Source: Folioceros fuciformis
Lineage: Eukaryota
Reading direction: 5' to 3'
Length of the DNA: 64,000 bases
Assembly: GCA_049999805.1 (NCBI GenBank)
Contig: JBNGIO010006232.1
Span: forward strand, 1 to 64,000
Of this stretch, positions 3,229-63,370 are shown one piece after another; positions within the stretch are counted from its first letter, which is position 1; every line of letters begins with the position of its first letter. The notes below the pieces were generated by a model. The model did no database searches. It was not told the DNA's origin and saw nothing but the letters and a program-made list of their open reading frames with translations. Made by a program: the position numbers and the translations under genes.

Positions 3229-3352
3229 TGCCTTGTTGGAGGTTCTGTTTGTACCGATTAATTGAGACACAGGACATCTCTCTTTCCGCACAGTGTTCAC
3301 CCCGTATATTATTAGACTCTCCGACGAAGAAGCTGATTTTGGTTCATTTATA

Positions 3353-6300
3353 TTAATCCGACAGCAAGACAGACTCCACAGGCAAATGACCTAGACAAGT
3401 CAAAACAGATCTTCCTAGCACCTCACAGCTACCCGCTTCAAACTGATCTGCTTTAGCTCCTGCGACATCGTTCAGGAGGAACTTCACACGTCCTCGATGT
3501 CTCAGAATATCTGCATTTTGAGGTTGAATACTGTAAGCTCTATCTAAATCAAGGAAAGCTCCTTCGAGATCGCCTGTGAGGTATTTGGCTACACCTCTCT
3601 CTAGAAGTCCATATGCACTAGCTGTTTTTTCCGGCAGCGAATGGTTGAGGTCTGCCAGGGCCCCTTCATAATCTCCCAAGAGCCCTCTAATACTAGCTCG
3701 TATCCTGCAGCGCAAGGAACGGGGAAATAAGTGTATTATACAATGAGGTTCCCTTCTGGACATCATGTCAGATACAGTGCAACAACTCACAGCAGCGTGT
3801 AAGGGTTATCTGGCTTCAGCTCATTCGCTATATTCAGGTCCTCTAGTGCACCACGATGATCACCTAGACACCTTTTCACATTTCCTCTGAATCTGGTAAA
3901 ACCAAATATGTCAAACACAAACTCAAACAATCATCAACAACCCTTCAGAGAAAAAAAATGCGTACTTGAGGGTGTAGCTGTTCCGTGGATCCATGAAATT
4001 GCTCCTGGTTAAATCTCTAAGTGCCCCTTCGCTGTCACCTACGAGCCTTTTGACATTGCCTCTCAGCCTAGAAAGCCAAACTTGTGTCTTAGAACCATGC
4101 ACTTCAGAAGCAGGACCTAGCTCTACCCTCAAATATACGAGCAGGCACAGGAAACTGTACAGTACCTTAGGACATCGGTGTCATCTGGGTCTAATTCGCA
4201 ACTATGATCGAGATCTTCAAGCGCTCCTGTGTACTTTCCTAATAGGACCTTAGCTGTCGCTCGCAAGCTGCACATACAAAAAAACAGACAAACATCTAGC
4301 ATTCTGATCTAATACCTCAGATTCTATCAATTCATCAGAAACATAGTAGCTTACTTGAGAGTGAAGTTGTCGTTGGGGTATAGCTTATCAGCCTCATCAA
4401 GGTCATCCAAAGCTCCTTGAACATCGCCTGTGTTCAATTTCACGGCTCCCCTAATGCTGTTACCGCACAAACTTTCAAGCATTCAGCAAGAAGACTCCGA
4501 TATTGTTCTGGCAAGAGTAGGCGCTGATTAAACCTGAGCGTGAAACTTCTGTTGGGATCTTGCGCTCCATGTACTGGTTTGTCCAATACAGCACTGCAGA
4601 CATGGAAGAGAGTTTATTACGGTCCATGATCAGGAATAAGTGGGATGCAGGCGACTCATCCGAAGGAGATGGTTGTCACATACTAACTTGGACATGGACT
4701 TGCTGGAAGATAGCCGCTCAAGGGCCTTGTCCAGGGCTCTGTCAAGATCTTCCATTGCTCCTTGGTAGTCTTCCAAATGGAGCTTTGTGTTGCCTCTCAC
4801 TCTACACCACAGGCAACCCATGACTTTCAGTTGGCAACAGGAACAGAAACTCAGAAGTATGTTACTGTGTAAGGGCTTCTCGGATTCTTCATACGTGAGG
4901 ATGAAGTGGTCATCGGGCTCAATTTGGGCAGCTCTATCTAGATCCATCAACGCACCACGATAGTCACCGAGATTGAGCTTCACAGCTCCCATGACGCTGC
5001 ACGATAAACTATAACACATTCAGCCTTGATTCTGCAGCCACTGTCCTCTTTAGTCGTTAATATGGCTGGATGTGCATCAAATTTCGATATGCAAAAACTC
5101 ATACCTGAGAGTCAAGCTCCTGTTAGGCTCCAACTCGTTTGCCTTTTCCAGATCGTGCAAAGCCCCTTCGTTGTCATCCACACATCGCTTGATGTTGCCC
5201 CGAATTCTGAGACACGCCGCCTTTAATTAATGCGTGTCAAAAAACAAAAACTTCCGAATCACACCAGAAGGAGTTATCAGAGGGTACTGAAGGGTAAAGC
5301 TGTCATTGGGTGCGAGCTCGTCTGCTTTGTCCACGTCTGCCAGGGCAGCCTCATAGTCTTCAAAATGCACCAAGATAGCTCCCCTCATCCTGGGACACAT
5401 GCATAGCCAAGCCTTCAGAGTTCAAGACGCATTTCTGCTGGCTACTTCATCCAAGGTCAGATATCTACAATAACCCATCTATTGTCTGACCTTGTGCTGG
5501 TCTGTGCAGACGTTATCTGAGAGTGAAATGCACAATCCAAATGGGTGGAAAGCCTTACTGCAACGTGAGCACGTGGTCCGGCTTTAACTTGTACGATCTA
5601 TTCAGCTCAGCAAGAGCACCCTTCAAGTCCCCTAAGCTTGTCCTTAGATTCCCTGACTGGCGCAAAGTGGCTGCCAAAACCATATCAGCCTGCTGCTCAG
5701 GCTCCAAAATCGGTAGCCTTCCCTCCTCTGTGCATATGGAGAAAGCCATCTGCTGTACATCTTCCATGACACCTCCCAATACGGAAGACTCTAAACCTAA
5801 CTGTTTAACAAGAATTTTCCTCAGATCACCATGACCATAGGAAAGCAGAAAGGAGTTAAGCAGCCTTATCTTAGGCCCACGAGATCTTTCAATTGTCATA
5901 TCCGAACTCAAATGACCTAGATGAACCTGTAGGACAGAGGTGCCGATGTCTGCACGATACCGTGCCAAGAATCGGGCGACCATGGAGTGGACCCAGAAAA
6001 AATTCTGCAACAGCAAAAGGAAACACATCACTGCCATGAATATGAACAAGTCATGAACTTCACCATGTCATAAACTTTTGAAACTCCCAAGTATTCACCA
6101 CAGTGCGTAGGAATGCTTTCACACGCCATAACAAACGGTGAAGGGCAACTCTAACCTTATCACCGTTATGACACACCACACCTAACTGCACAAGATGCCC
6201 CATGAGCTGTGGAAACTGTGAAGCCAACTTGCCACCTGTGACCTCGAGTGCCAGCTCCACCACAGGTGCAGGAATCAGACATTCGCTCTCAAACAGGCTC

Positions 6301-9256
6301 ATTGCCTTGATTGCTTCCTGTTGTTCTGTTGGTAGGCGGCTAAGACACAGGTCGATTACCCCAATCAGTACTGAGTGAGGATCGGGACCAGGCAAACGTT
6401 TTGGTTCTATAACCCAGGGCTCCACATTCTGTTCTGGAGCAGGTGCCACCTTGATGCCATGATCAGAAATGCGAAAGGAATCTATTCGCCACGAACCAGT
6501 CTTTGTGGGAACTCCAAGGTTGTTGAGGAAAGGATCACTGAAGTTGCTGCGCATAGAGAGGAAGGACCCCTCCGTGACGAATCTCACATCATCTTTCAAA
6601 TTTGATGCAGCTGAGTATGAATTAACATCAAAGCATTGCAAGGATGGATCACTGAAGTTGCTCTTGCGCATTGAAAGGAAAGACCCATCGGCAACGCCCC
6701 TGACCTCATCTTTCAGGGTCATGGAAACTGAGTAGAAAGACGTATCGGCATCTGTTGACGTCGTTGTGGCTCCACTTTCTGACACCTTCTTCGTCAGGCC
6801 TTCGAGCAGGATTTGAAGGTCGGCAGACATATTGGCCCATGCAGTTGCATCTTTGCCTCGTAACATGCCACCAATGATGCTCACAGCAAGAGGGCAACCA
6901 CCACAGGTCTCAAGTATTTTGGTGGCTGACTCCTGAACAGAGCCAAACGCATCATCATTTTTCACTGCAAAGCTCAAGTTACGAAGCGTGTAGCTGACAA
7001 CCTTCACGGACATGGTGTGACATACCTTCCGGTCTAGATCAATAGTTGTCCATGAACATGACTCAAGTATCCGATGATCAACCTGTTTACCATAGTAATC
7101 ATCTGATCCAATCTGGATCAGGGTGCAGGAGGAAACTCCAGCACTCCCCACACACTGCGTCCGTATATTGTCATCAGTCAGCATACTTCCAGTCAGCCCG
7201 AGGCTACTTGTCACAAGTATCTTGCCTTTGTGCCCGGGGAACAAGAACTTCTCAACAATTTTTGGACTCCAGACCTCGTCCATAATCAAAAGCGACCGCT
7301 TTCCTGCTTTACACAAGGACGAATATTTTAAACATGACGGTCACCAAGGCATGATAACAACTACAGCATAGTCAGCAAAATGTGCTCACCTGAGAGTCTG
7401 GAAGCAAGTAACTGAGTTGTGTCTGCTTTCGACACACCTGGAGTCTCCGACACCTTTTCACCATCATAGGCCATTAGCATAATCAGCAGCTTCTGTTGCT
7501 CTATTATCTTCGTGTCTAATTCAGCCTCATCGCATTGTGCTCCAAATCTCTCACCAAAGTGTAAATAATACACACCACCAGGATAATCAAGACCTGAGAG
7601 CACCCCACAATTTCATAAGCAGGTGTACACTAGTTGACATGCAGCTCTCATATCTCGAGGTGTACGGAGCAAGATGGCATTGCGCTAAAAACGTCTGAAA
7701 CAACCACCTACACCAACTGCTCACCATTTTCAAGCTCAAGCGCAATGTCAAGGGCAAGGAGCGACTTGCCCATACCAAACATGCCATGAAGCAAGACAAC
7801 CTTATGCGGGCCAGATCTCAGAGTTTGCAACATCAGATCCGCAAGCCTCTTCACCCTTACATACGTAGGTGGCGTGTTTTTCAACCCCAGACCAGTGCAA
7901 ATTTCCTACAAGGGGAGAAGACCTCGATCAGAAGCTGGAATGCGCATCATTTTAGAGGACCCAAATTCGCCTTCCACTTACCGTTAATTGGCTTTTGCGT
8001 GAGAAGGCTCCACAAGTGACAGCTTGATCCCTCAATCTTGCCAGCTCTCTGTCCCAGTACTGCAATTTTGCAAGGAAATGACTGCCCAGTTTCTGTACGT
8101 CCTGAGCAGCATCCTGTGTGTAACTGATAGACGAGACCTAGGTGGCAATGAGACTGTGTCAGCTCTTCTCCCTACTTGCTCTTGATGTCCCGAGATATGT
8201 AGATCAGAGTTTACCATTGCCATGTGCCTAGAATTTGAATTCCTGAGAAATTAACTTTACAGTAACGTGCTACGCAGCAATGAGCTCGAGAAGCTTTCTA
8301 CTGCAAGATACCTGAGAACCACCTCTTGGCCGAAGACAGCATGCCAGCCTCCTCAGTAGTCCACCAGCTGTGCGCTCTGATTTGCTGATGCTCTTCCCTG
8401 GTGATTTCTTGCCTCCGACATCCTGATGAAGCAATCCTGCTGTGATCTCACCATCACTATTCGATCGTCCAAATCGCGCGATCTTCCCCTTCAGTACGTC
8501 AGGAGACGAAGATTCTGAGCCCTTTCTCATGGAACCTGCAGCTTTAGACCAACCAAACCAGGAACTGGTCCTTCTGTGACCTCCATTGGATGGAACAGTA
8601 GCCTTTGAGGATAACAGAGCTGTGTTGATCAGAAGTATTTCGTTGCTTTCCTCGTCCTCCAAAGCTGAGAAAAAGTCTTCGGAATCATCAAGGTGGCGGT
8701 TCTTTCGCTGAAAGAGCAACGATGATTTCTGTCCCACAGCCACCTACAAGCAAGAAACAGGCATTCAGACTGGAACCAGAGGATCATTTTTTCACTAAAG
8801 CTGAGGCTTTCATCAACTTCAGGTGATTTCGCCACGGCACAATCCCATCCACTGCATGCATGGCAAGGTTAGTCACATCTCGACATCAGGGATGTGTACC
8901 TCTTGTCGACCAGCGAGTCCAAGAGATGTTCCAGCCTGATGTATACCCTTCCGCAGTTTGTCAAGGGCGTTCTCCCCAGCACGAGACATAGGACGGCCAG
9001 ACCCACTTGCCTCGATCTCCTTGTCTAGAGCAGACAGCCTGCCAATAAAAGCCGTCACAAACTCCAGACTGTCGTTCTCAATAGATGGCGCATCGACTGG
9101 GCTCCTTTTCGGATAAACATCCTGCGATTGCAGAGAGAGCTTTTCCAGTATCACTCCAATTGCTCGCACATTGCTGATGATATCCGTGAGATGTTGATCA
9201 CCCATCGTATATCTGGCCGCAAGATTTAGTGCAGATTCCAATCTCTCTCTCAGCAA
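3353..9256 (-). CDS. NB-ARC (STAND NTPase)-TPR protein, NLR-like, with an unassigned helical N-terminal domain
   Basis: Spliced frame gives Walker A GMFGMGKS (7762-7785), Walker B/kinase-2 LLIMDEVW, RNBS-B KILVTS, GLPL-type GGCPLAVSIIGG and an MHD-position WVHSMV. These are followed by about 12 TPRs of consensus RGxVKxxLGDxxGALxDLxxAxxLxPxxxxxL. All junctions traced are GT-AG and in frame. The 5' end upstream of ~9256 is unresolved (in-frame ATG at 9205). Confidence 0.88.
6530..6718 (-). repeat. Internal coding duplication (~114-117 nt period) within the NB-ARC exon
   Basis: LKDEVRGVADGSFLSMRKSNFSDPSL vs LKDDVRFVTEGSFLSMRSNFSDPFL; ggatcactgaagttgct occurs at 6532 and 6646. Confidence 0.85.
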
Positions 9257-11052
9257 ACTGTCAGACAGATCCCGGCAGTTGGCTCACGGATGCCTACAAA
9301 CTTGGGTCTGGCTCGAAAGCATGTTTCTAAATTGTGTGTGTCTCAATCTGAACATAGAACTCAACCTCTTGTCCTCCAGTTGATGCTCGACAGATCAGAA
9401 CATCCACTACCACCAGTAATGTGAGCAGACCTGCCGTGATATCACAAACATACCCGTTCTCTTCAAAGGACTCATCAGGAAGGACGAGGAATATGAGTCA
9501 GGCCCAAGGGTGGAAGAAGACTGGATCCCAATTTCCAGAGAAATCAGCAAGCCCGTAGTTCACATCGCCCATGGGCACAGCCAGTGGTGAACGTTACGGG
9601 AAAAGTCTTGCATTGCAGAACGAGACTGCTCCAATCATCCAACACCCTTGCATCAAAATCAAGAAACCGCAAGAGAATTATCATTGCAGGGTCGGATGTG
9701 GGGACATTGAGGCAGATGGTGGAGCAACCAGGCGGTGATGTGGGGACTTAAGCGAGGAAGAGAGCTCCAGGACCAAGCATCTGTCTGGCCAGCTCTCGTG
9801 AGCTGGGCCTGAGGAGGACGGCAGAACAACACCAAACAGGAATAGCGAGGCTGGATATCCAGTCGGACGGATGCATAGTATATCAAGGCAGCCAACGAGA
9901 CAGCCACTGTGGGACAGAGATCCCGTGAAGCAACCATGACTGCCAGCAGAGAGAGGGTCTCCCAGAGCGGAGGCACAGTGACGAGATGTTGCAACCTTCA
10001 AAAAGTCAGCTGACATCCACGAAGTGCCAGGACACACCGCGCTCCAACAGCTCTGGCATGGGACCCCTGGAGACTAAAAGAAGATGGGCGTGGAGAGCGT
10101 CGTTCATGCAAACGGACGTGCTCACACGATCCGCCGGCTGCCATGGCCAAACTGGTAGACCATGGTCCACGAAAGGAGGGGGCCCACCGGCTCTCCTTCA
10201 CCTCATCCCAAATATGTATGATTTCCACACCTCTGCTGCAGGAACCTCTGCAACCAACTTCTCGCTCGATTCACGGACTCCTCGTACTCCCCACACCCTA
10301 CCTATTCTCATTGGAACACGTTGTCAAACCTACACGATCAAACCGACATACATTGTGTAGTGCATCTATCTACATCACCAGTGAAATTACACTACAGAGC
10401 AGGATTACACGCAAGGCCTCACACCTCCATGCAACTTTCTCCACGCAGCGAAGTAAACTGCTAGCACCAAATACAGTAAAGACTGTACATTCCTATTTAG
10501 GCTCCCCATCCAGGTCCTTACTGCAGTGTAGAGCTTTTAACCACGACTTTCTTAAGATACATCTGGACTGAGCCATCGAGCAACTCGGACATACATCATC
10601 TCTTTTCGTGGCTGTCGGAGACCTGGAGACGCCGAGAGGATGCAGGCGAACATGAAAAGGGTTGGTTGCGGAGGAATTAAATCTGTCGAAATATTTTAAT
10701 TTTTGGTTAAGGTTTGATTATGGTAGTCGGCAAGTGACGAAGAGTGGAGGGCTTCAAGCTTAGAGACCTCAGGGCGTGATGGGCAACATAGACTTCTGAT
10801 GAGAGCCCGTGTTCGTAAGGAGGCAAACCGGTGTGGAAAAGGCGGGAAGCTCAGGCCTTGAGAGTTTGGATTAACTAGGTTGTTCATAACCCGTGACATG
10901 AATCACAAGAGTGTTCACACACGAAGGAAGCAAACGTCGTGCCTTTGGTTGAAGGCAAACCAGCTGCTACTGGTGGGTGGGTTTGTCCGACAGACTTCTC
11001 CGAGGTCCTGAAGCAGGCGTCCGGGTCCTGCCTGGGTGGCTCGAGCTTCACC

Positions 11053-13948
11053 ATGGGGAAGAAGCAGCACAGCAAGGATCGCATGTTCATCACCCGCTCG
11101 GAGTGGGCTACAGAGTGGGGCGGTGCGAAGAATCGGGACTTGCGATTGCCTTTCAAGCAACTGCCCTTCTACTGCTGCGCGTACGTTGGTGTGAGGGAAT
11201 TTTCGGTTTGGTCTCTTTTCGTGTTTTTGGGTGCTGGTTGCTGACCCGATAGTGGATGGCGCCTGCAGGCTGACTTTCACCCCGTTTGAAGACCCCGTGG
11301 GAACAGCAGAGGGACATGTTTTTGAGATCATGTGAGTGGGTTGATGCAAGATGAGAATGTGAAAGTTTGAGTAGAGACGTGATTTGACTTACTGTGATGA
11401 GAGGACATGACATGAGATGAGGACTTGGGCTTTTGTTCTGTGCAGGAACATCGTGCCGTACATACAAAAGTACGGCAAAAATCCAGTTTCTGGGACACCG
11501 TTGGCCGTGAAGGATCTCATTAAGCTGCGATTCCACAGGAACTCAGATGGTATGATTTACGATGGTGACTGATGGGTTTGGAAAGTTGGTGAGATGCTTT
11601 GATGTTTGATAGCTGGCTCCGTAGTGACGTTCCCTTCGTGAACGTGCCCGTCTTCAGGAGAGTATCAGTGTCCAGTGCTCAACAAGGTTTTCACGGAGTT
11701 CACCCATATCGTGGCTGTGAAGACAACTGGCAACGTATTTTGTTATGAGGTTTTTCTCAGTTCATGAGATTTCTTGTTTTTCTGCATGTGTTGTATCACA
11801 TTCAACGCAGTGTTGTGACCTGACCTGGGATGGGACCTGGGATGCAGGCGGTTCGTGAGCTCAACATTAAGACCAAAAATTGGAGGGAACTGCTTTCCGA
11901 TGAGCCGTTTTGTAGGGATGACATCATCACCATTCAGGTCAGCCTTCAATCGTGAAACCATGGCAGGCTGAAAATCTGTCAGGCGAGGCAAACTTTGCTT
12001 TGCAGGGCCACCCAGTAGCTGCAATATGGATATAATTTGAACTGGATGTTTCCCAGATCCTGTGAGGCTGAAGGGCCAGCCTGGCGTTTGAACCGAATCT
12101 TGACATTCATCTGTTGCGACAGGATCCTAATAACCTGAATGCCAAGCTTCTAACAGAATTTGACCATGTGAAGCGTGAGCTTAAACTTGATGATGAAGGT
12201 ATGCTTTTAGCAGACTGTTTGATGTGTGGAGCTCCGTTCAAGATGGGTCCGTGGGGCCGTGGGGCTCATCATTCTCATGTTAATCTGAGCGTATTGTGAT
12301 TACAGAGTTGAGAAAGCTGCAGGAAGATCCTACGTACAACATCAATATGTCGGACGATATCAAGCGCATGATGCATGACCTTGGAACAGACAAAGGCAAA
12401 GAAGCCGCCTTGAATGGTGGAGGTGGTGGAAAGGCCCAACGGGAAAGAGCTGCCGCAGTAGCAGCTTTGGATGAAACAAGAGAGCGCGCAGCTAAAATGG
12501 AAGCAGCTACTAAATCCAAGCCTGATAAGCCACCAGCTATGAGTGTGGTTGATGCCGCGTCAGCCTCAGTTCACGGAAGGAGTGCAGCGGCTGCTAAAGC
12601 TGGGACACCTGAAAATACAGCTGCTCGTGTAGCTCTCCATGCACAGGGAGAGCTAGTTCCTGTGAACACTAAGCTGGTAGGCTACTGCTCGTTGACCTTG
12701 CAGCCATCTAGGAGATCCTGTCGTTCACAACTTGTTTTGCCACTGACACCCTGTGATTCCTCGACACAGATCAAAAGCAAGTACACCACCGGGGCTGCAT
12801 CTCGATCCTTTACTTCCACCTCCTATGACCCTGTCACAACTAATGATTTTGAGTATGTCAAAGCTGAGAAGAATCCCACGAAGAAAGGGTATGTCCGATT
12901 GCATTCCACACATGGAGACCTTAACATTGAACTCCATTGTGACATAACACCCCGAGCATGTGAGAACTTTATCACCCTGTGCGAGCGGGGCTATTATGAC
13001 GGCATTGCTTTCCACCGGAATATCAGGTTTGCTTGTGTCCGCAGCCGTCAGCTTCTGTTGTTGTGTCCGTGAGGTGAAGCGCCACCATATCTAACATGAA
13101 GTTGTTGTCTTGTGTAGGAATTTTATGATTCAAGGGGGTGATCCAACTGGGACAGGTAAAGGTGGGGAGTCCATTTGGGGAAAGCCTTTCAAAGATGAGC
13201 TGAACTCGAAGCTCATCCATTCAGGACGGGGTGTTGTTAGTATGGCCAACAGTGGACCACACACAAATGGGTCTCAGTTCTTTATTTTGTACAAGTCAGC
13301 TCAGCATCTCAACTACAAACACACAATATTTGGAAAAGTTGTCGGAGGGCTAGAGACACTTGCAGCCATGGAAAAAGTTCCTATTGATGATGACGACAGG
13401 CCATTGGTAATCTCGTAACTTGGCAGACTCCTGTTTCTCGCCGTTGGCTATGTTAATCTGGCTAGATGTGAGACTGAGCGCAATCGCCCTTGCATTTTTT
13501 GCCTGACATTCGCGGAACTGTTATCATTGTGGGATTGTGGCAGGAGGAGATCAAGATCCTGAGTGTTTCTATTTTCGTCAACCCATATGCAGAGCTAGAC
13601 GAAGAGGAGGAACGGGAGAAGAGCAAGCCAGTCAAAACTCCTCAGGAACTTGCTGAGGATGTGAGCACCATCCATCCTTTTGCTTTGACGTCCCTAGTTT
13701 GTGGTTTGCTGAGCATCGGTGTTGGCTAACAGAGTCTCTCTATCCCACAGGAAAAGGTGGGCTCATGGTTCAGCAATCCAGGGTCAGGAGTCTCTCTTGT
13801 AGCGAATGGTAATGGTGTCGGCAAATACCTAAAAGTGAGGCAGGTGGCGAAGGATGTTGGAGCCTCGAGCTTAGAAGACAACATCAACAACAAGAAGCGG
13901 AAAGCCGAAGTTGCAGGAGTAGAATTCAAGGATTTCTCTGGATGGTAA
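11053..13948 (+). CDS. CYP65: U-box/cyclophilin peptidyl-prolyl isomerase (CYP65 / PPIL2 type)
   Basis: Starts [18 protein letters not shown]...LPFYCC. Cyclophilin core [10 protein letters not shown]...ENFITLC...[27 protein letters not shown]...[16 protein letters not shown]. Ends FKDFSGW-stop at 13948. Multi-exon, GT-AG introns. Confidence 0.93.
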
Positions 13949-14474: not shown

Positions 14475-15785
14475 GGCATACAAGATAGTTTGATGTGGCT
14501 TGTGTGGATAAAGGAGGCTACACTTTTTTTGTGCTAAGAGGCAACCACTCATTCCATGCAAGGTCTAGAATTATCACATCTTTCCCTGTTGAAAGAAAAG
14601 GTGAAGTGGCTGAATGCTTATGTACTCATGGGACTCACCATGGAGAAGATGCACCTTATTGCACATACCACAATACCATTGTTATGCAAGACTTTTACTT
14701 TTATAGATTGTGTCAAATACATGAGAGACGAGCTGCTAACAAGAAAGACGAAGGTTTTGAACTACTGTGGTGTAATTGACAGTAGGATATTAAATTTCTT
14801 TGTGGTAACTTCACCACATATATAAATGCCTCCTTTTTCATAGACCTTCAAGTAGATGAAAAAACACTTGTGGATGAAATGTTTGAAAAGTGGGAGTGGA
14901 AGCAACTATCAGAACACATGGATGCAACACNNNNNNNNNNNNNNNNNNNNNNNNNNNNNNNNNNNNNNNNNNNNNNNNNNNNNNNNNNNNNNNNNNNNNN
15001 NNNNNNNNNNNNNNNNNNNNNNNNNNNNNNAGCTCATGTTGGCAATGGCAACCTCGACCTTCTAAGATGACTACTGTAAACTCCAAGAGAAATTGTGCTC
15101 GTAGAAGTCATGGAATCCGAAATTCATGTAAGGGTTTGGCAACCAAACAAAAAAAAAGGGCATAAGAAGATTGAGGAGTACCATAAATTGCAAGAGATAT
15201 TGTGGTGGTAGATTTCAAGAAAATCTAAAATTCATGCAAGGGTCGGAAGGATTTTCAAGGTATGAGCAATCTAGTACAAGGAGGCGACAACTCGTATGAA
15301 GATACTATCTAGAGAGATTCTTTGAAGCATATACAAATGTGGTTGGAGAAGGCGAAGAAGCTAAACATCATCCATGTCACACTGGCCAAGCATTGAAATT
15401 GCGAAATATGAAAGCAAGTGAGAAGAAGTACCTGTAATATAACATAGCTGACCATATCAACAATTTTCAACCATCATTTCAGAATGTGGTAAGTGGACAT
15501 TAGGTTTGTGTTTTAATGCACCAAATGTTCTATACATGGAGTTTGTGGCCAGATTTGAAGTGATAATCAGTATTTGGAGGTCTTGATATTAAGTAATGTT
15601 CCCTCCATAAGCGAACATGATGCTTAAGTGAAAGGACTTTTAGGGTTTTATGGTTTAGGGTTTGCCTAGTAGTTTCAAAGAGCACATCCTAAATGCAAAG
15701 CTTTGAGGCTAATGGAAAATGTGCAGAGGCACTTGTTATATGACATTTAAGGATGACAAGGGAAGAAAGAGTAATGACTATGTAA

Positions 15786-20600: not shown

Positions 20601-22393
20601 CCCCACACCAATTACCTCTTGCCTTGCAAAGCCTATAGAAAGATTTTCTAGCCATTAGTATTGTCACCAATTTCTTGAAGGCGGTTTTCAATATCTAGCA
20701 TACTTGGGACTATAAGTCAGGGTAGTTGAAGTGTGTGTAATTCCTATATGTTAGTTGCTTTTTGCTTTTGTTACCCCTTGACTCGTGTCTTCATTTGATT
20801 CAGGGATTGCCTTGCTGGTTTAATGTCCAAAGCCTATCATGGTGGCTAGAGATACGACGAAGGCAACATGGATTCTCATCACCTTTGGTTCACTTCTATT
20901 CATTGGGCTTGAAGTATGAGTACCCATGTAAACCTATTGTTATAAGCTAGTTGAGGTAGCTAGTCTTGCTCATGGGGACGAATTTGGGAGATCTAATGAC
21001 AACAATGGAAAAGTGTGGTTAGTAAATTGCAAAGCCCTAGGGACCTGGGGTTTTCCAACTACAAGGGCGGGACCCTCATTTAGGATGAACTTCCACCAAG
21101 TAATAGAGACTTAGAGCACCTTGGGCGCAGGTGAGCATATAGCATGGTATCCATCAGCTTGCCTAACGGGAGCATGATCATGTGCACATATACACCATAT
21201 CCATCCTCTATCTCATTTTTGTATTACAAAGGAATGCAACTCATTGAAGACAAAGTATTATTTATAAAGTTCAATTTGCCCTCTTAGTTTTCGCTCTCAC
21301 CAATGTTTTTATAATATCTTGGATCTATTATAAGAAATCTCTTGGACTTACTATAAGGAATCTTTGGAGTGGAGGGGACTTTCCATCTCTCTTTCAAGAA
21401 TAGAAAATATATAATATGCATTATAAAAAATACATCTATACATAGCTTGCAACATATGTTATGAATATCATTCCCTTAGGTGAACCTGTCTTCATTTTAT
21501 GATCTTTTATTACTGAAGTTATTATGTTTTGAAATTGTGAGATGCTAGTTAAACGGATCTGAGTTATGTAAGTTCAGCAAAGCGCGGAGAAAGAAATGAA
21601 ATGTGTGAATCCTCAGCAACTTTGGTTCTACCGAATCTGTCACTAGAACCAAGGTCCCGCTTCCTATGCAATAAGTAAAATAATAATATATATTAGAAAA
21701 TGAATATACGACCTTTTGGTTCACACCTGACAGTGTGGTCCGGGTGGACTAAGTGTCAAAGTGTGGCATGCAAAATGATGGAGGCTCATGTTCGGCATTT
21801 AAAATGCATCTGGGAGGTGCGCGGGACAGCGTGACGAGGCCGGGATTCGCCCTCCATTCCCGATGCAGGCAGCAAGAAAGCGAAAGAAGCATGCCGTCTC
21901 TGTCTCGAATGCTTTGTCCCTAAACGAATCGAGAGTTCCGATGCAGCTGGCCGAGGTCTTGCGACTCTCCCGGCACTCACCTTCTCCGGCCGTCAGCTGG
22001 CAACCAGAGAATTGCAGACTTGCTGTGGTAGGCAAATGGTGATCCAGGGCCGCAGCAGACTGACACTGATTCTTTAGAACAGTTTGAAGGATTGCGGAGG
22101 AAGCAGATTGGAGCTGCCGTGGCAGCAACCGACGGCGGTTATCACTGTGTTGTAGAAGGCGATTGCACAATTGCCGGAGTTGGCAGTGTCGACGAGATCT
22201 GTGCTGTGGTTCAGACTGTTCTGATGGGAGCTGAGGAGCGTGAAGGGGTTTGCTGGTGGTAATGTGATGCGGACCATGAGGTCAAGGAGCTTAGCTTGGT
22301 GTGTGAGGAAGTAAGAAAGTGGAGGTGCATCGTGTGATGCTAGAGGTGTGGGAGCTGATGGGTAGATTTTTAGGGCTTTTAGCGGGGAGGGTG

Positions 22394-36293: not shown

Positions 36294-36393
36294 NNNNNNN
36301 NNNNNNNNNNNNNNNNNNNNNNNNNNNNNNNNNNNNNNNNNNNNNNNNNNNNNNNNNNNNNNNNNNNNNNNNNNNNNNNNNNNNNNNNNNNNN
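36294..36393. other. Scaffold gap (100 N)
   Basis: Run of N. Confidence 0.95.
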
Positions 36394-39745: not shown

Positions 39746-41236
39746 CTACTTCTCCTTACCCCCACCGAACATGCCTCCAAAATCTTTGCTCCCAATATTC
39801 TTCATCAAACTCTGCAAGCCTCCGACACCACCTATTTGCTGTAGCATTTGGGGTGGAAGCACCCGGCTCATATGTTGTGCATTCATATTCCTGGCCATGG
39901 AGCTCATATCTCCCTTCTTGGGTATTTTGAGACCTTTCATCTTACTCCAGATCTTGGCCAGCCTCATAAACTCTTCCAGCAGATCATGCACCTCCTTCAG
40001 AGTGCGTCCAGAACCTCGTGCCACTCTCATCATCCGTGAGGGCTCTGTCATTATTTTCGGATTCGTGCTATCGAGCTCTGCGTTTGTCATGGAGTCCATC
40101 ATGGTCATGTACTTCTGAATCTTACTCTGACTCTCTTTCTCCCGGCCCTTGGGCATGAGCTCAGCACTGAAACCTGGAATCATGGCCATCACCGAGCTCA
40201 GCGGGCCCATGTTCAGAATGTTCTGAAACTGCTCGTACATAATCCGTAAGGTGAAAGTTCCCTCCGTCAGCTTCTGCAACAGTTCTGGCTGCTGCTCCAT
40301 GGGCACCACTTCATGAATCTTGTCCATGAACCCAGACCAGTCTCCCATGCCGAGCAATCTCTGCACGAAAGGCTTCGGCTCAAACTGCTCGAACTCATCC
40401 ATATGCTCTCCAGTACCAAGGAAGATGATGGGGCTTTTCGTTGCTGCAACAGCACTGAGAGCACCACCTCCCTTCGCGTGCCCGTCCATCTTCGTCACGA
40501 TCACAGCCCCCACTGCAACACTCTGCTTGAAAGCTTGTGCTTGATCGAATGCAGCCTGTCCTATGCTACTGTCCATGGTGAAAATGACCAAGTCCGGTGA
40601 CACGGCCTCAGAAACTTGCCTCATTTCCTCAAACAAGGCAGCCTCCTGCTTGTGCCGTCCACTGGTATCCACAATAATCAGATCACAATTCTCCTTCTTA
40701 AACCTCTCCACGCCTTCCTGCGAAATTTTGACTGGATCAGTCTCCGTGTAGCTGCCAAAAAACGGGATCTTCGCCTTGGTTGCGTTCTGCTTCAGCTGAT
40801 CGAATGCTCCAGCCCTGAATGTATCTGCACACACCAACGCCGGTTTCCACCCTTTCTTCTGATAGTAATATGCATACTTGGTACAGGTGGTAGTCTTCCC
40901 CGCCCCCTGAAGTCCTACAAACATGATTATGTTCAGCTTCCCTTTCTTCGGCGTGAAAGCAGGCTTTCCTGGGTCCAGCATCGAGCACAGCTCGTTGAAC
41001 ACAGCCTGCTGGATGATCCGCCTCTTGTTGTGCCCTGCAGCCAGATCCTCCAAGTTCACTATTTTCTTGATGTTGTTCTGCATGGTCCTCACCATCTGGA
41101 ACTGCACATCAGCCTGCATCAACGCCCTGGTGATCTCATTCAAGCAATCTGCTAGCACCTTCTCGTCTATCACAGTAGCGTTGCTCATATGCTGCAGGGC
41201 CCGGGCAATCCGCCCACCAAGCTCTGCGAGCACCAT
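39746..41236 (-). CDS. SRP54: Signal recognition particle 54 kDa subunit (cytosolic), single exon
   Basis: Uninterrupted 496-aa [51 protein letters not shown] and a Met-rich M domain. Confidence 0.97.
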
Positions 41237-41561
41237 CTTGCCACCCCTCTCCGGCTTCTCCCGGCCTCAATCAAAATCCTGGCCCGGTTAGTTGCTTTGC
41301 ACTCACGACCCTCTTCGGTTTTCGGTCAAGCAATCTAAAGTGTTCTTCCAGGAAGCGTCCTGCGCACGGAGGGCACTCCGTCAGCCGCCTGAGAGACCCG
41401 ATTTTGCTAGACGTCTTTACGCTTTATAAGTGCGTCTTGACAGGACCCAGATGCTGTGTCTATTATTTGACTTCTAGGAGCAGTCCACACCCAGTATGTA
41501 GGGTTGAGCTGGGAATATAGCCTAGACGTTTGCGACAGGTAGATTGGAAAGGGTATTCGAG

Positions 41562-60614: not shown

Positions 60615-63370
<2,756 letters not shown>

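Follow-up and report, generated by a model that had tools for sequence, protein, structure and literature searches.

We report that a gene on the minus strand of a 64,000-nucleotide (nt) stretch of Folioceros fuciformis DNA (positions 1 to 64,000 of contig JBNGIO010006232.1, GenBank assembly GCA_049999805.1; this whole stretch is referred to as the window) carries seven exons of exactly 102 nt, each of which spans one period of a tetratricopeptide repeat (TPR) array. The encoded protein is predicted from its sequence to be a STAND (NB-ARC) ATPase of 1339 residues with an arm of 12 TPRs. We consider it likely, with a probability of roughly 0.7, that this exon layout is the historical footprint of an old serial tandem duplication of one 102-nt exon together with its intron, and that the copies, which have since diverged, are now position-specific and constitutively spliced.

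The locus is covered by three sequencing runs, the contigs of which were compared over positions 3300-9600 at a likeness of at least 90%. Two of the runs, X1 and X2, are DNA; the third, X3, is RNA by a guessed label and was taken as RNA because it holds 17 joints of GT..AG polarity whereas X1 and X2 are colinear with the locus and show zero joints. The gene model was built from the X3 joints and the GT..AG borders, one border being moved by two ambiguous bases to give 8744-8899. X3 holds 18 joints in total, of which 15 are listed and three were placed by coordinates as the upstream introns of a 3842-nt contig; the 18 comprise 17 constitutive introns and one 130-nt joint (3578/3709), which is treated with the neighbouring gene below. 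When the 18 exons are joined, a single frame stays open for 1339 codons; it starts at ATG 9205, the first in-frame ATG downstream of an in-frame stop, and ends with the stop codon at 3353-3355. A pseudogene, or mis-read open reading frames (ORFs), was rejected as a reading, since the spliced RNA and the single long open frame argue against it.

The exons of the cassette region, in the order of transcription and each resting on the sequence together with X3 joints, are:

5288 to 5389, minus strand, cassette exon of 102 nt, TPR 2
5105 to 5206, minus strand, cassette exon of 102 nt, TPR 3
4895 to 4996, minus strand, cassette exon of 102 nt, TPR 4
4688 to 4801, minus strand, exon of 114 nt, first part of the extended TPR 5
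4534 to 4593, minus strand, exon of 60 nt, second part of the extended TPR 5
4355 to 4456, minus strand, cassette exon of 102 nt, TPR 6
4166 to 4267, minus strand, cassette exon of 102 nt, TPR 7
3966 to 4067, minus strand, cassette exon of 102 nt, TPR 8
3791 to 3892, minus strand, cassette exon of 102 nt, TPR 9

An earlier, sequence-only reading of the window had singled out seven 102-nt, phase-2 TPR exons, and these stand: 7/7 are exactly 102 nt long, with AG before and GT after, and all seven open in one frame only, leaving 1 nt at the start and 2 nt at the end, i.e. with phase-2 introns on both sides. The borders and the phase that it gave for one further repeat, split and extended over two exons, were likewise confirmed. 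Throughout the repeat region (introns 5390-5558 down to 3705-3790, 73-169 nt in length) the intron phase is 2 in 10/10 cases, while the phases of the other seven introns are 0, 0, 0, 1, 1, 0 and 0. With Pfam TPR_2 coordinates as placed on the last exon, the intron cuts the codon of TPR position 5, inside helix A, and each exon consequently comprises positions 5/6-34 of one TPR and positions 1-4 of the next. The description of the gene as having one TPR per exon is therefore right for the repeat period and wrong for the structural TPR unit.

The extended TPR 5 (4534-4801) resembles a normal cassette over the latter's first ~24 and last ~8 residues, and between these two parts lie ~24 additional residues and a further phase-2 intron. 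Judged by its sequence, and speculatively, it might be what is left of two cassettes that each lost one end.

The cassette exons are spliced in RNA as first read. The X3 contigs join all 10 introns of the repeat region, CT..AC on the plus strand corresponding to GT..AG on the minus strand, at 3704/3791, 3892/3966, 4067/4166, 4267/4355, 4456/4534, 4593/4688, 4801/4895, 4996/5105, 5206/5288 and 5389/5559. Moreover, the seven exons between 3966 and 5206 (five cassettes and the split pair), in genomic order and with nothing else, make up a 684-nt X3 contig, which means that the cassettes in this part are all included and follow one another as in the genome.

With respect to age, pairs of cassette exons share 43-60% identity in DNA and 33-58% in protein, and the synonymous divergence (dS, Nei-Gojobori) is above 2 or undefined in 21/21 pairs; the identity at third positions is 0.33, against 0.25 by chance. 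Saturated dS and a DNA identity of this order mark the cassette exons as old copies. Pairs of introns align like shuffled controls (best score 14 vs 8±2). The intron lies at the same nucleotide and in the same phase in every repeat, which points to a single origin followed by many rounds of copying. The cassette repeats are on average 43.6% identical among themselves (21 pairs) and 35.0% identical to the four non-cassette repeats (28 pairs), an excess similarity that is weakly suggestive, at the level of sequence, of the copying of one unit. Such a history would have started long ago with one 102-nt exon and its intron, copied repeatedly in tandem, and the duplicated exons would then have diverged into fixed, position-specific repeats with constitutive splicing. 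The three repeats without introns (TPRs 10-12) would either be older than the intron or have lost their introns; loss of introns at the 3' end through recombination with cDNA is a known process.

The same arrangement could have come about if every repeat of a pre-existing TPR array without introns had acquired an intron of its own, always at one favoured (proto-splice) site. The intron-less state of the last three repeats agrees with this, and so does the junction sequence, which is alike in all repeats (codons for T-L followed by the split codon) and possibly a recurrent target of insertion; the introns having no sequence in common can be read in the same way. However, at least nine separate gains at an identical nucleotide and in an identical phase would be needed, and repeated copying of a single exon-intron unit is a far more parsimonious account. 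Unrelated introns are to be expected anyway where dS is saturated, and the cassette repeats are closer to one another than to the intron-less repeats. Independent gain is for these reasons very unlikely in our judgement.

The sequence-only reading had gone further and suggested an active device, in which the TPR sensor would be varied via exon shuffling within or between loci or via combinatorial exon skipping. Its observation that cassettes could be skipped or swapped without disturbing the frame is borne out, since every pairing of a donor with an acceptor in the repeat region is in frame and 0/100 combinations give a stop, and this favours such a device. The precedent that it invoked, repeat-per-exon NB-ARC-TPR genes subject to shuffling in the brown alga Ectocarpus, is real and has a parallel architecture. 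The Ectocarpus siliculosus study (Zambounis et al. 2012, PMC3341825), in which shuffling is argued, describes 24 NB-ARC-TPR loci, 13 of which have 126-nt TPR exons (a 34-residue TPR plus linker, 42 amino acids); inactivated exons are found in introns, dS between exons is on average well below 2, and exons of 102 nt are described as truncated, probably non-functional 'TPR-like' exons. A further point in favour of an active device is that some X3 contig ends coincide with exon borders, which could reflect branching of the assembly graph.

Ongoing shuffling or combinatorial splicing nevertheless found no support in the Folioceros gene. Its copies are old, with dS saturated in all 21 pairs where Ectocarpus stays well below 2, and its introns are unrelated to each other. 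The inactivated TPR exons that are a hallmark of Ectocarpus are absent from the introns and from the vicinity: a tblastn search with the seven cassette peptides against the 64-kb window gave matches at E≤1e-3 only at 3503-5653 on the minus strand, so that the orphan TPR exons that had been proposed as a check were found neither in introns nor on the other strand nor elsewhere in the window, the best match outside the repeats of the gene (22236-22301) having E 0.008. Among the DNA contigs that match at ≥90% likeness, every one represents the locus itself and has a single place on it, and there is no second copy among them at this likeness. Finally, no cassette skipping was seen among the 18 X3 joints (three inferred from coordinates; one RNA data set, in the form of contigs), and the junctions are those of full inclusion only. 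We regard the diversification idea as unsupported rather than refuted, and an active device as distinctly unlikely.

Several observations weigh against reading the layout as a fixed remnant of old duplications. The excess similarity among the cassettes is modest and any detailed history of the duplications accordingly tentative, and old copies within one gene may be compatible with exchange with paralogs beyond the single locus in view. The RNA evidence comes from a single data set that was kept as contigs, from which rare isoforms are dropped; three X3 contig ends lie exactly on exon borders, including both ends of one contig (3966 and 5206), and the depths are unequal, with 82 for the TPR contig (exons 3966-5206) and 18 for the NB-ARC contig (exon 5288 and upstream). 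These contig ends and this gap in depth probably reflect 3' bias, introns retained in part of the transcripts and overlap with a transcript of the convergent phosphofructokinase gene, although alternative paths could hide there. As to the protein, the Pfam TPR matches on the single testable exon each fall under their own curated bit cut-off, and the mechanism suggested below for the arm is drawn from the family only.

The difference in depth could alternatively be due to a separate and more abundant TPR-only transcript that starts internally, in which case the cassette region would serve a second product. The depth of an X3 contig is one mean per contig, unfit to rank parts of a gene, and 3' bias together with the overlapping transcript from the convergent neighbour accounts for the values; moreover, the junction 5206/5288, which links the two contigs, is present in X3. 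Contig depths, like the parts of the window that lack RNA cover, were left aside as evidence of expression level. A second product of this kind appears highly improbable, and the old tandem duplication of one exon-intron unit, with constitutive splicing of its copies, remains the reading that we favour.

Turning to the protein, the TPR array consists of 12 repeats in register, with TPR 1 at the end of exon 8, the cassettes as TPRs 2-9 (TPR 5 being split and extended) and TPRs 10-12 in the last exon. The 34-residue period of the cassettes reads x-R-G-x-x-K-x-x-L-G-D-x-x-G-A-L-x-D-L-x-x-A-x-x-L-x-P-x-x-x-x-T-L. In the columns equivalent to G8, A20 and P32 of a TPR, G is found in 10/12 repeats, A in 12/12 and P in 9/11 scored, and L in 11/11 scored, TPR 5 being excluded from alignment columns past 24. 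Searched against Pfam, the last exon matched TPR_9 (E 2.7e-07), TPR_11 (3.1e-05) and TPR_2 (3.6e-05). An NCBIfam search gave the TOM70 TPR region with E 2.6e-04, and no match rose above the family cut-offs. The C-terminal 450 residues are TPRs and no leucine-rich repeat (LRR) family was reported there, and hence the protein is not a canonical plant NLR (NB-ARC-LRR).

The NB-ARC assignment is based on Pfam PF00931, which matched the ORF 6063-7340 with 34.7 bits against a cut-off of 23.5 (E 1.4e-08); this ORF reads through one in-frame intron, and the match spans profile positions 172-222 only. By itself the NB-ARC exon scored 21.3 bits, slightly below the cut-off. The NB-ARC motifs can be read in order as GMFGMGKS, LLIMDEVW and GGCPLAV, followed by VHS at the MHD position; we take these, from general knowledge of their names and positions, to be Walker A, Walker B, GLPL and MHD, respectively. 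A sequence search of the PDB returned weak NB-ARC matches only, namely Apaf-1 (E 0.014), NRC4 (0.019) and ZAR1 (0.087).

The NB-ARC contains an insert (6510-6740, minus strand), placed after the GLPL-like motif and ahead of the winged-helix part, with a tandem internal duplication of ~30 residues. The duplicated motif is L-K-D-x-V-R ... G-S-F-L-S-M-R ... S-N-F-S-D-P, and a similar insert is present in a related fragment, P0001 (see below).

For the ~310 N-terminal residues no Pfam or NCBIfam family was found. There is no sign of a TIR domain: exons 1-3 gave no Pfam family at E≤0.1, and the four ORFs upstream of the ATG (9330-11388) gave no protein family, TIR included, at E≤0.01. A single-sequence AlphaFold model of the exon 1 product shows three helices, at a confidence (pLDDT 58) too low to be of use. 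The RNA contig that contains the NB-ARC exons runs colinearly for at least 395 nt upstream of the ATG (to at least 9600), and its length suggests ~565 nt more; the 5' leader may be very long, or else the contig is fused with a neighbouring transcript.

The exons outside the cassette region, with the evidence for each in brackets (P0001 and P0002 are the two close relatives described below), are:

8900 to 9205, minus strand, coding part of exon 1 (residues 1-102), N-terminal region, no known family (RNA piece 8898-9600)
8312 to 8743, minus strand, exon 2, Ser/Gly/Lys-rich, probably disordered linker (RNA piece 8310-8741; composition as read, no Pfam match)
7982 to 8137, minus strand, exon 3, short helical segment ahead of the ATPase (GT..AG borders; length in keeping with the 3842-nt contig, from the coordinates of which the joint was placed)
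7725 to 7905, minus strand, exon 4, P-loop / Walker A, GMFGMGKS (joint 7591/7723; weak AAA_16, nSTAND and NB-ARC matches at the P-loop)
7390 to 7593, minus strand, exon 5, NB subdomain between Walker A and Walker B (X3 joints, gene model)
7026 to 7303, minus strand, exon 6, Walker B, LLIMDEVW, and an RNBS-B-like KILVTSS (P0002 aligns to exactly residues 427-519)
6156 to 6932, minus strand, exon 7, GLPL-like GGCPLAV, internally duplicated insert, winged-helix part (Pfam NB-ARC; P0001, residues 518-778)
5559 to 6004, minus strand, exon 8, MHD-like VHS, linker, TPR 1, phase-2 end at the cassette repeat position (joints 6004/6156 and 5389/5559)
3353 to 3704, minus strand, last coding exon, TPRs 10-12 without introns, short tail, stop 3353-3355 (joint 3704/3791; Pfam TPR matches)

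By analogy with other NB-ARC/TPR proteins, the TPR arm would hold the ATPase off and bind a ligand; once bound, the ligand would permit nucleotide exchange and oligomerisation, with the signal then relayed by the unclassified N-terminal region. A switch in which the arm controls the ATPase in this manner is what the family resemblance suggests.

Relatives are few. An exhaustive HMMER search with the 426-residue NB-ARC ORF against 1.84 billion representatives gave 11 matches. Two of these are close, P0001 (46% identity) and P0002 (61%), ORFs that are each recorded on a 10,116-nt contig; they align to model residues 518-778 and 427-519, respectively, i.e. almost exactly to exons 7 and 6, and bounds of this kind indicate genomic DNA in which the introns of the NB-ARC part are placed as in the window gene. 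The TPR part of this relative was sought by a word-based search with the last exon against proteins of 63-203 amino acids, which yielded 0/29 candidates, and a word-based search with the NB-ARC exon against proteins of 747-2130 amino acids yielded 0/4796. The closest named relative, P0004 (KAK9820258.1), is from the chlorophyte [Myrmecia] bisecta and has a Pfam NB-ARC (4.7e-18) and TPRs; its identity to the model is 34% in the NB-ARC (residues 332-546; pairwise E 9.5e-30) and 27% from the winged helix into the first TPRs. The metagenome proteins P0008 and P0012 share 30% identity over the NB-ARC. None of the 11 matches was recognised as having the length and architecture of the TIR-NBARC-TPR proteins (TNPs) of plants; the only ones long enough are P0003 (TIR-NB-ARC, no evident TPRs) and P0005 (NB-ARC-LRR-like by reading).

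Compared with Ectocarpus, as described in PMC3341825, the window gene has the same order of an NB-ARC followed by a TPR array with one period per exon of constant length, a multiple of three, such that gain or loss in frame is possible. It differs in that its 102-nt exons hold the complete 34-residue period, where the Ectocarpus exons are of 126 nt, and in that a single locus is in view with no dead exons in 64 kb and saturated dS, as opposed to 24 loci with dead exons and low dS. The one-repeat-per-exon layout probably arose independently in the brown alga and in the land plant. A literature search for TPR-per-exon gene structures, with supplementary tables outside its reach, returned Ectocarpus only.

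The TNPs (also XTNX; Johanndrees et al. 2022, PMC9806590) likewise have an NB-ARC-type ATPase followed by TPRs and not LRRs. TNPs, which were compared by architecture only, differ from the window gene in their N-terminal TIR; no TIR was found in the N-terminal exons or the upstream ORFs of the latter, and its absence in the Pfam searches of both rules out TNP membership. The green-algal P0004 has the same GMFGMGK P-loop and the same flavour of TPR, but it has 532 residues, few TPRs and a preceding helicase-like fragment. An NB-TPR 'clade I' has been reported from Klebsormidium (Andolfo et al. 2019, PMC7145615), and is likened to the window gene by description. Bacterial and fungal NB-ARC/TPR proteins are mentioned in PMC9806590. 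Their resemblance to the Folioceros protein lies in a variable N-terminal module, an NB-ARC switch and a TPR sensor arm. The bacterial and fungal STAND genes of this type are not known to contain introns, and the TPRs that they encode belong for the most part to the 42-residue TPR_10/12 type. It is conceivable, if unlikely, that the gene belongs to a TIR-less NB-ARC-TPR family of non-seed land plants, common to green algae and distinct from TNPs, in which frame-neutral cassettes are gained, lost or skipped (in evolution or at a low transcript level) with changes in the length or specificity of the sensor, as a plant counterpart of the brown-alga system.

According to a survey (PMC9806590), no NLR-like proteins of plants other than TNPs have TPRs; an expressed NB-ARC-TPR gene that lacks a TIR, in a non-seed land plant, runs counter to this statement. 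The gene is nearly without relatives in very large protein collections, with two close fragments only among its 11 matches. A lineage-restricted new member of the NB-ARC-TPR class, it stands out among such genes of a land plant by the striking regularity of its cassettes, and it provides a very clean case of a repeat array made of symmetric phase-2 exons as well as a concrete locus for asking whether plants vary an immune-type sensor via cassette exons. Judged by the evidence so far, old duplications left this layout behind as a fossil, and it is no active generator of diversity; the biological surprise is accordingly moderate.

The TPR gene and a phosphofructokinase (PFK) gene form a convergent pair, the PFK frame running on the plus strand to ~3228 and the TPR gene ending on the minus strand with its stop at 3353-3355. 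A 2161-nt X3 contig that extends to the left into the PFK gene also covers 3300-3580, and the 130-nt X3 joint 3578/3709, with GT..AG on the plus strand, lies inside the last exon of the TPR gene and across its acceptor; the two genes seem to have overlapping, antisense transcripts. As a cassette-skipping isoform this joint was rejected, its length not being a multiple of three and its GT..AG polarity being that of the plus strand.

Elsewhere in the window, a complete cytosolic SRP54 of 506 residues (39746-41266, minus strand) is encoded by one ORF without an intron in an otherwise intron-rich region. It is 88% identical to SRP54 of a lycophyte, 86% to those of two liverworts and a Sphagnum and 84% to that of another moss, against 79-83% for the seed plants and the fern that were checked, and is thus most like those of non-seed land plants. 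The window also contains four scaffold gaps of exactly 100 N (2270-2369, 14931-15030, 36294-36393 and 63193-63292), the first of which interrupts the phosphofructokinase gene.

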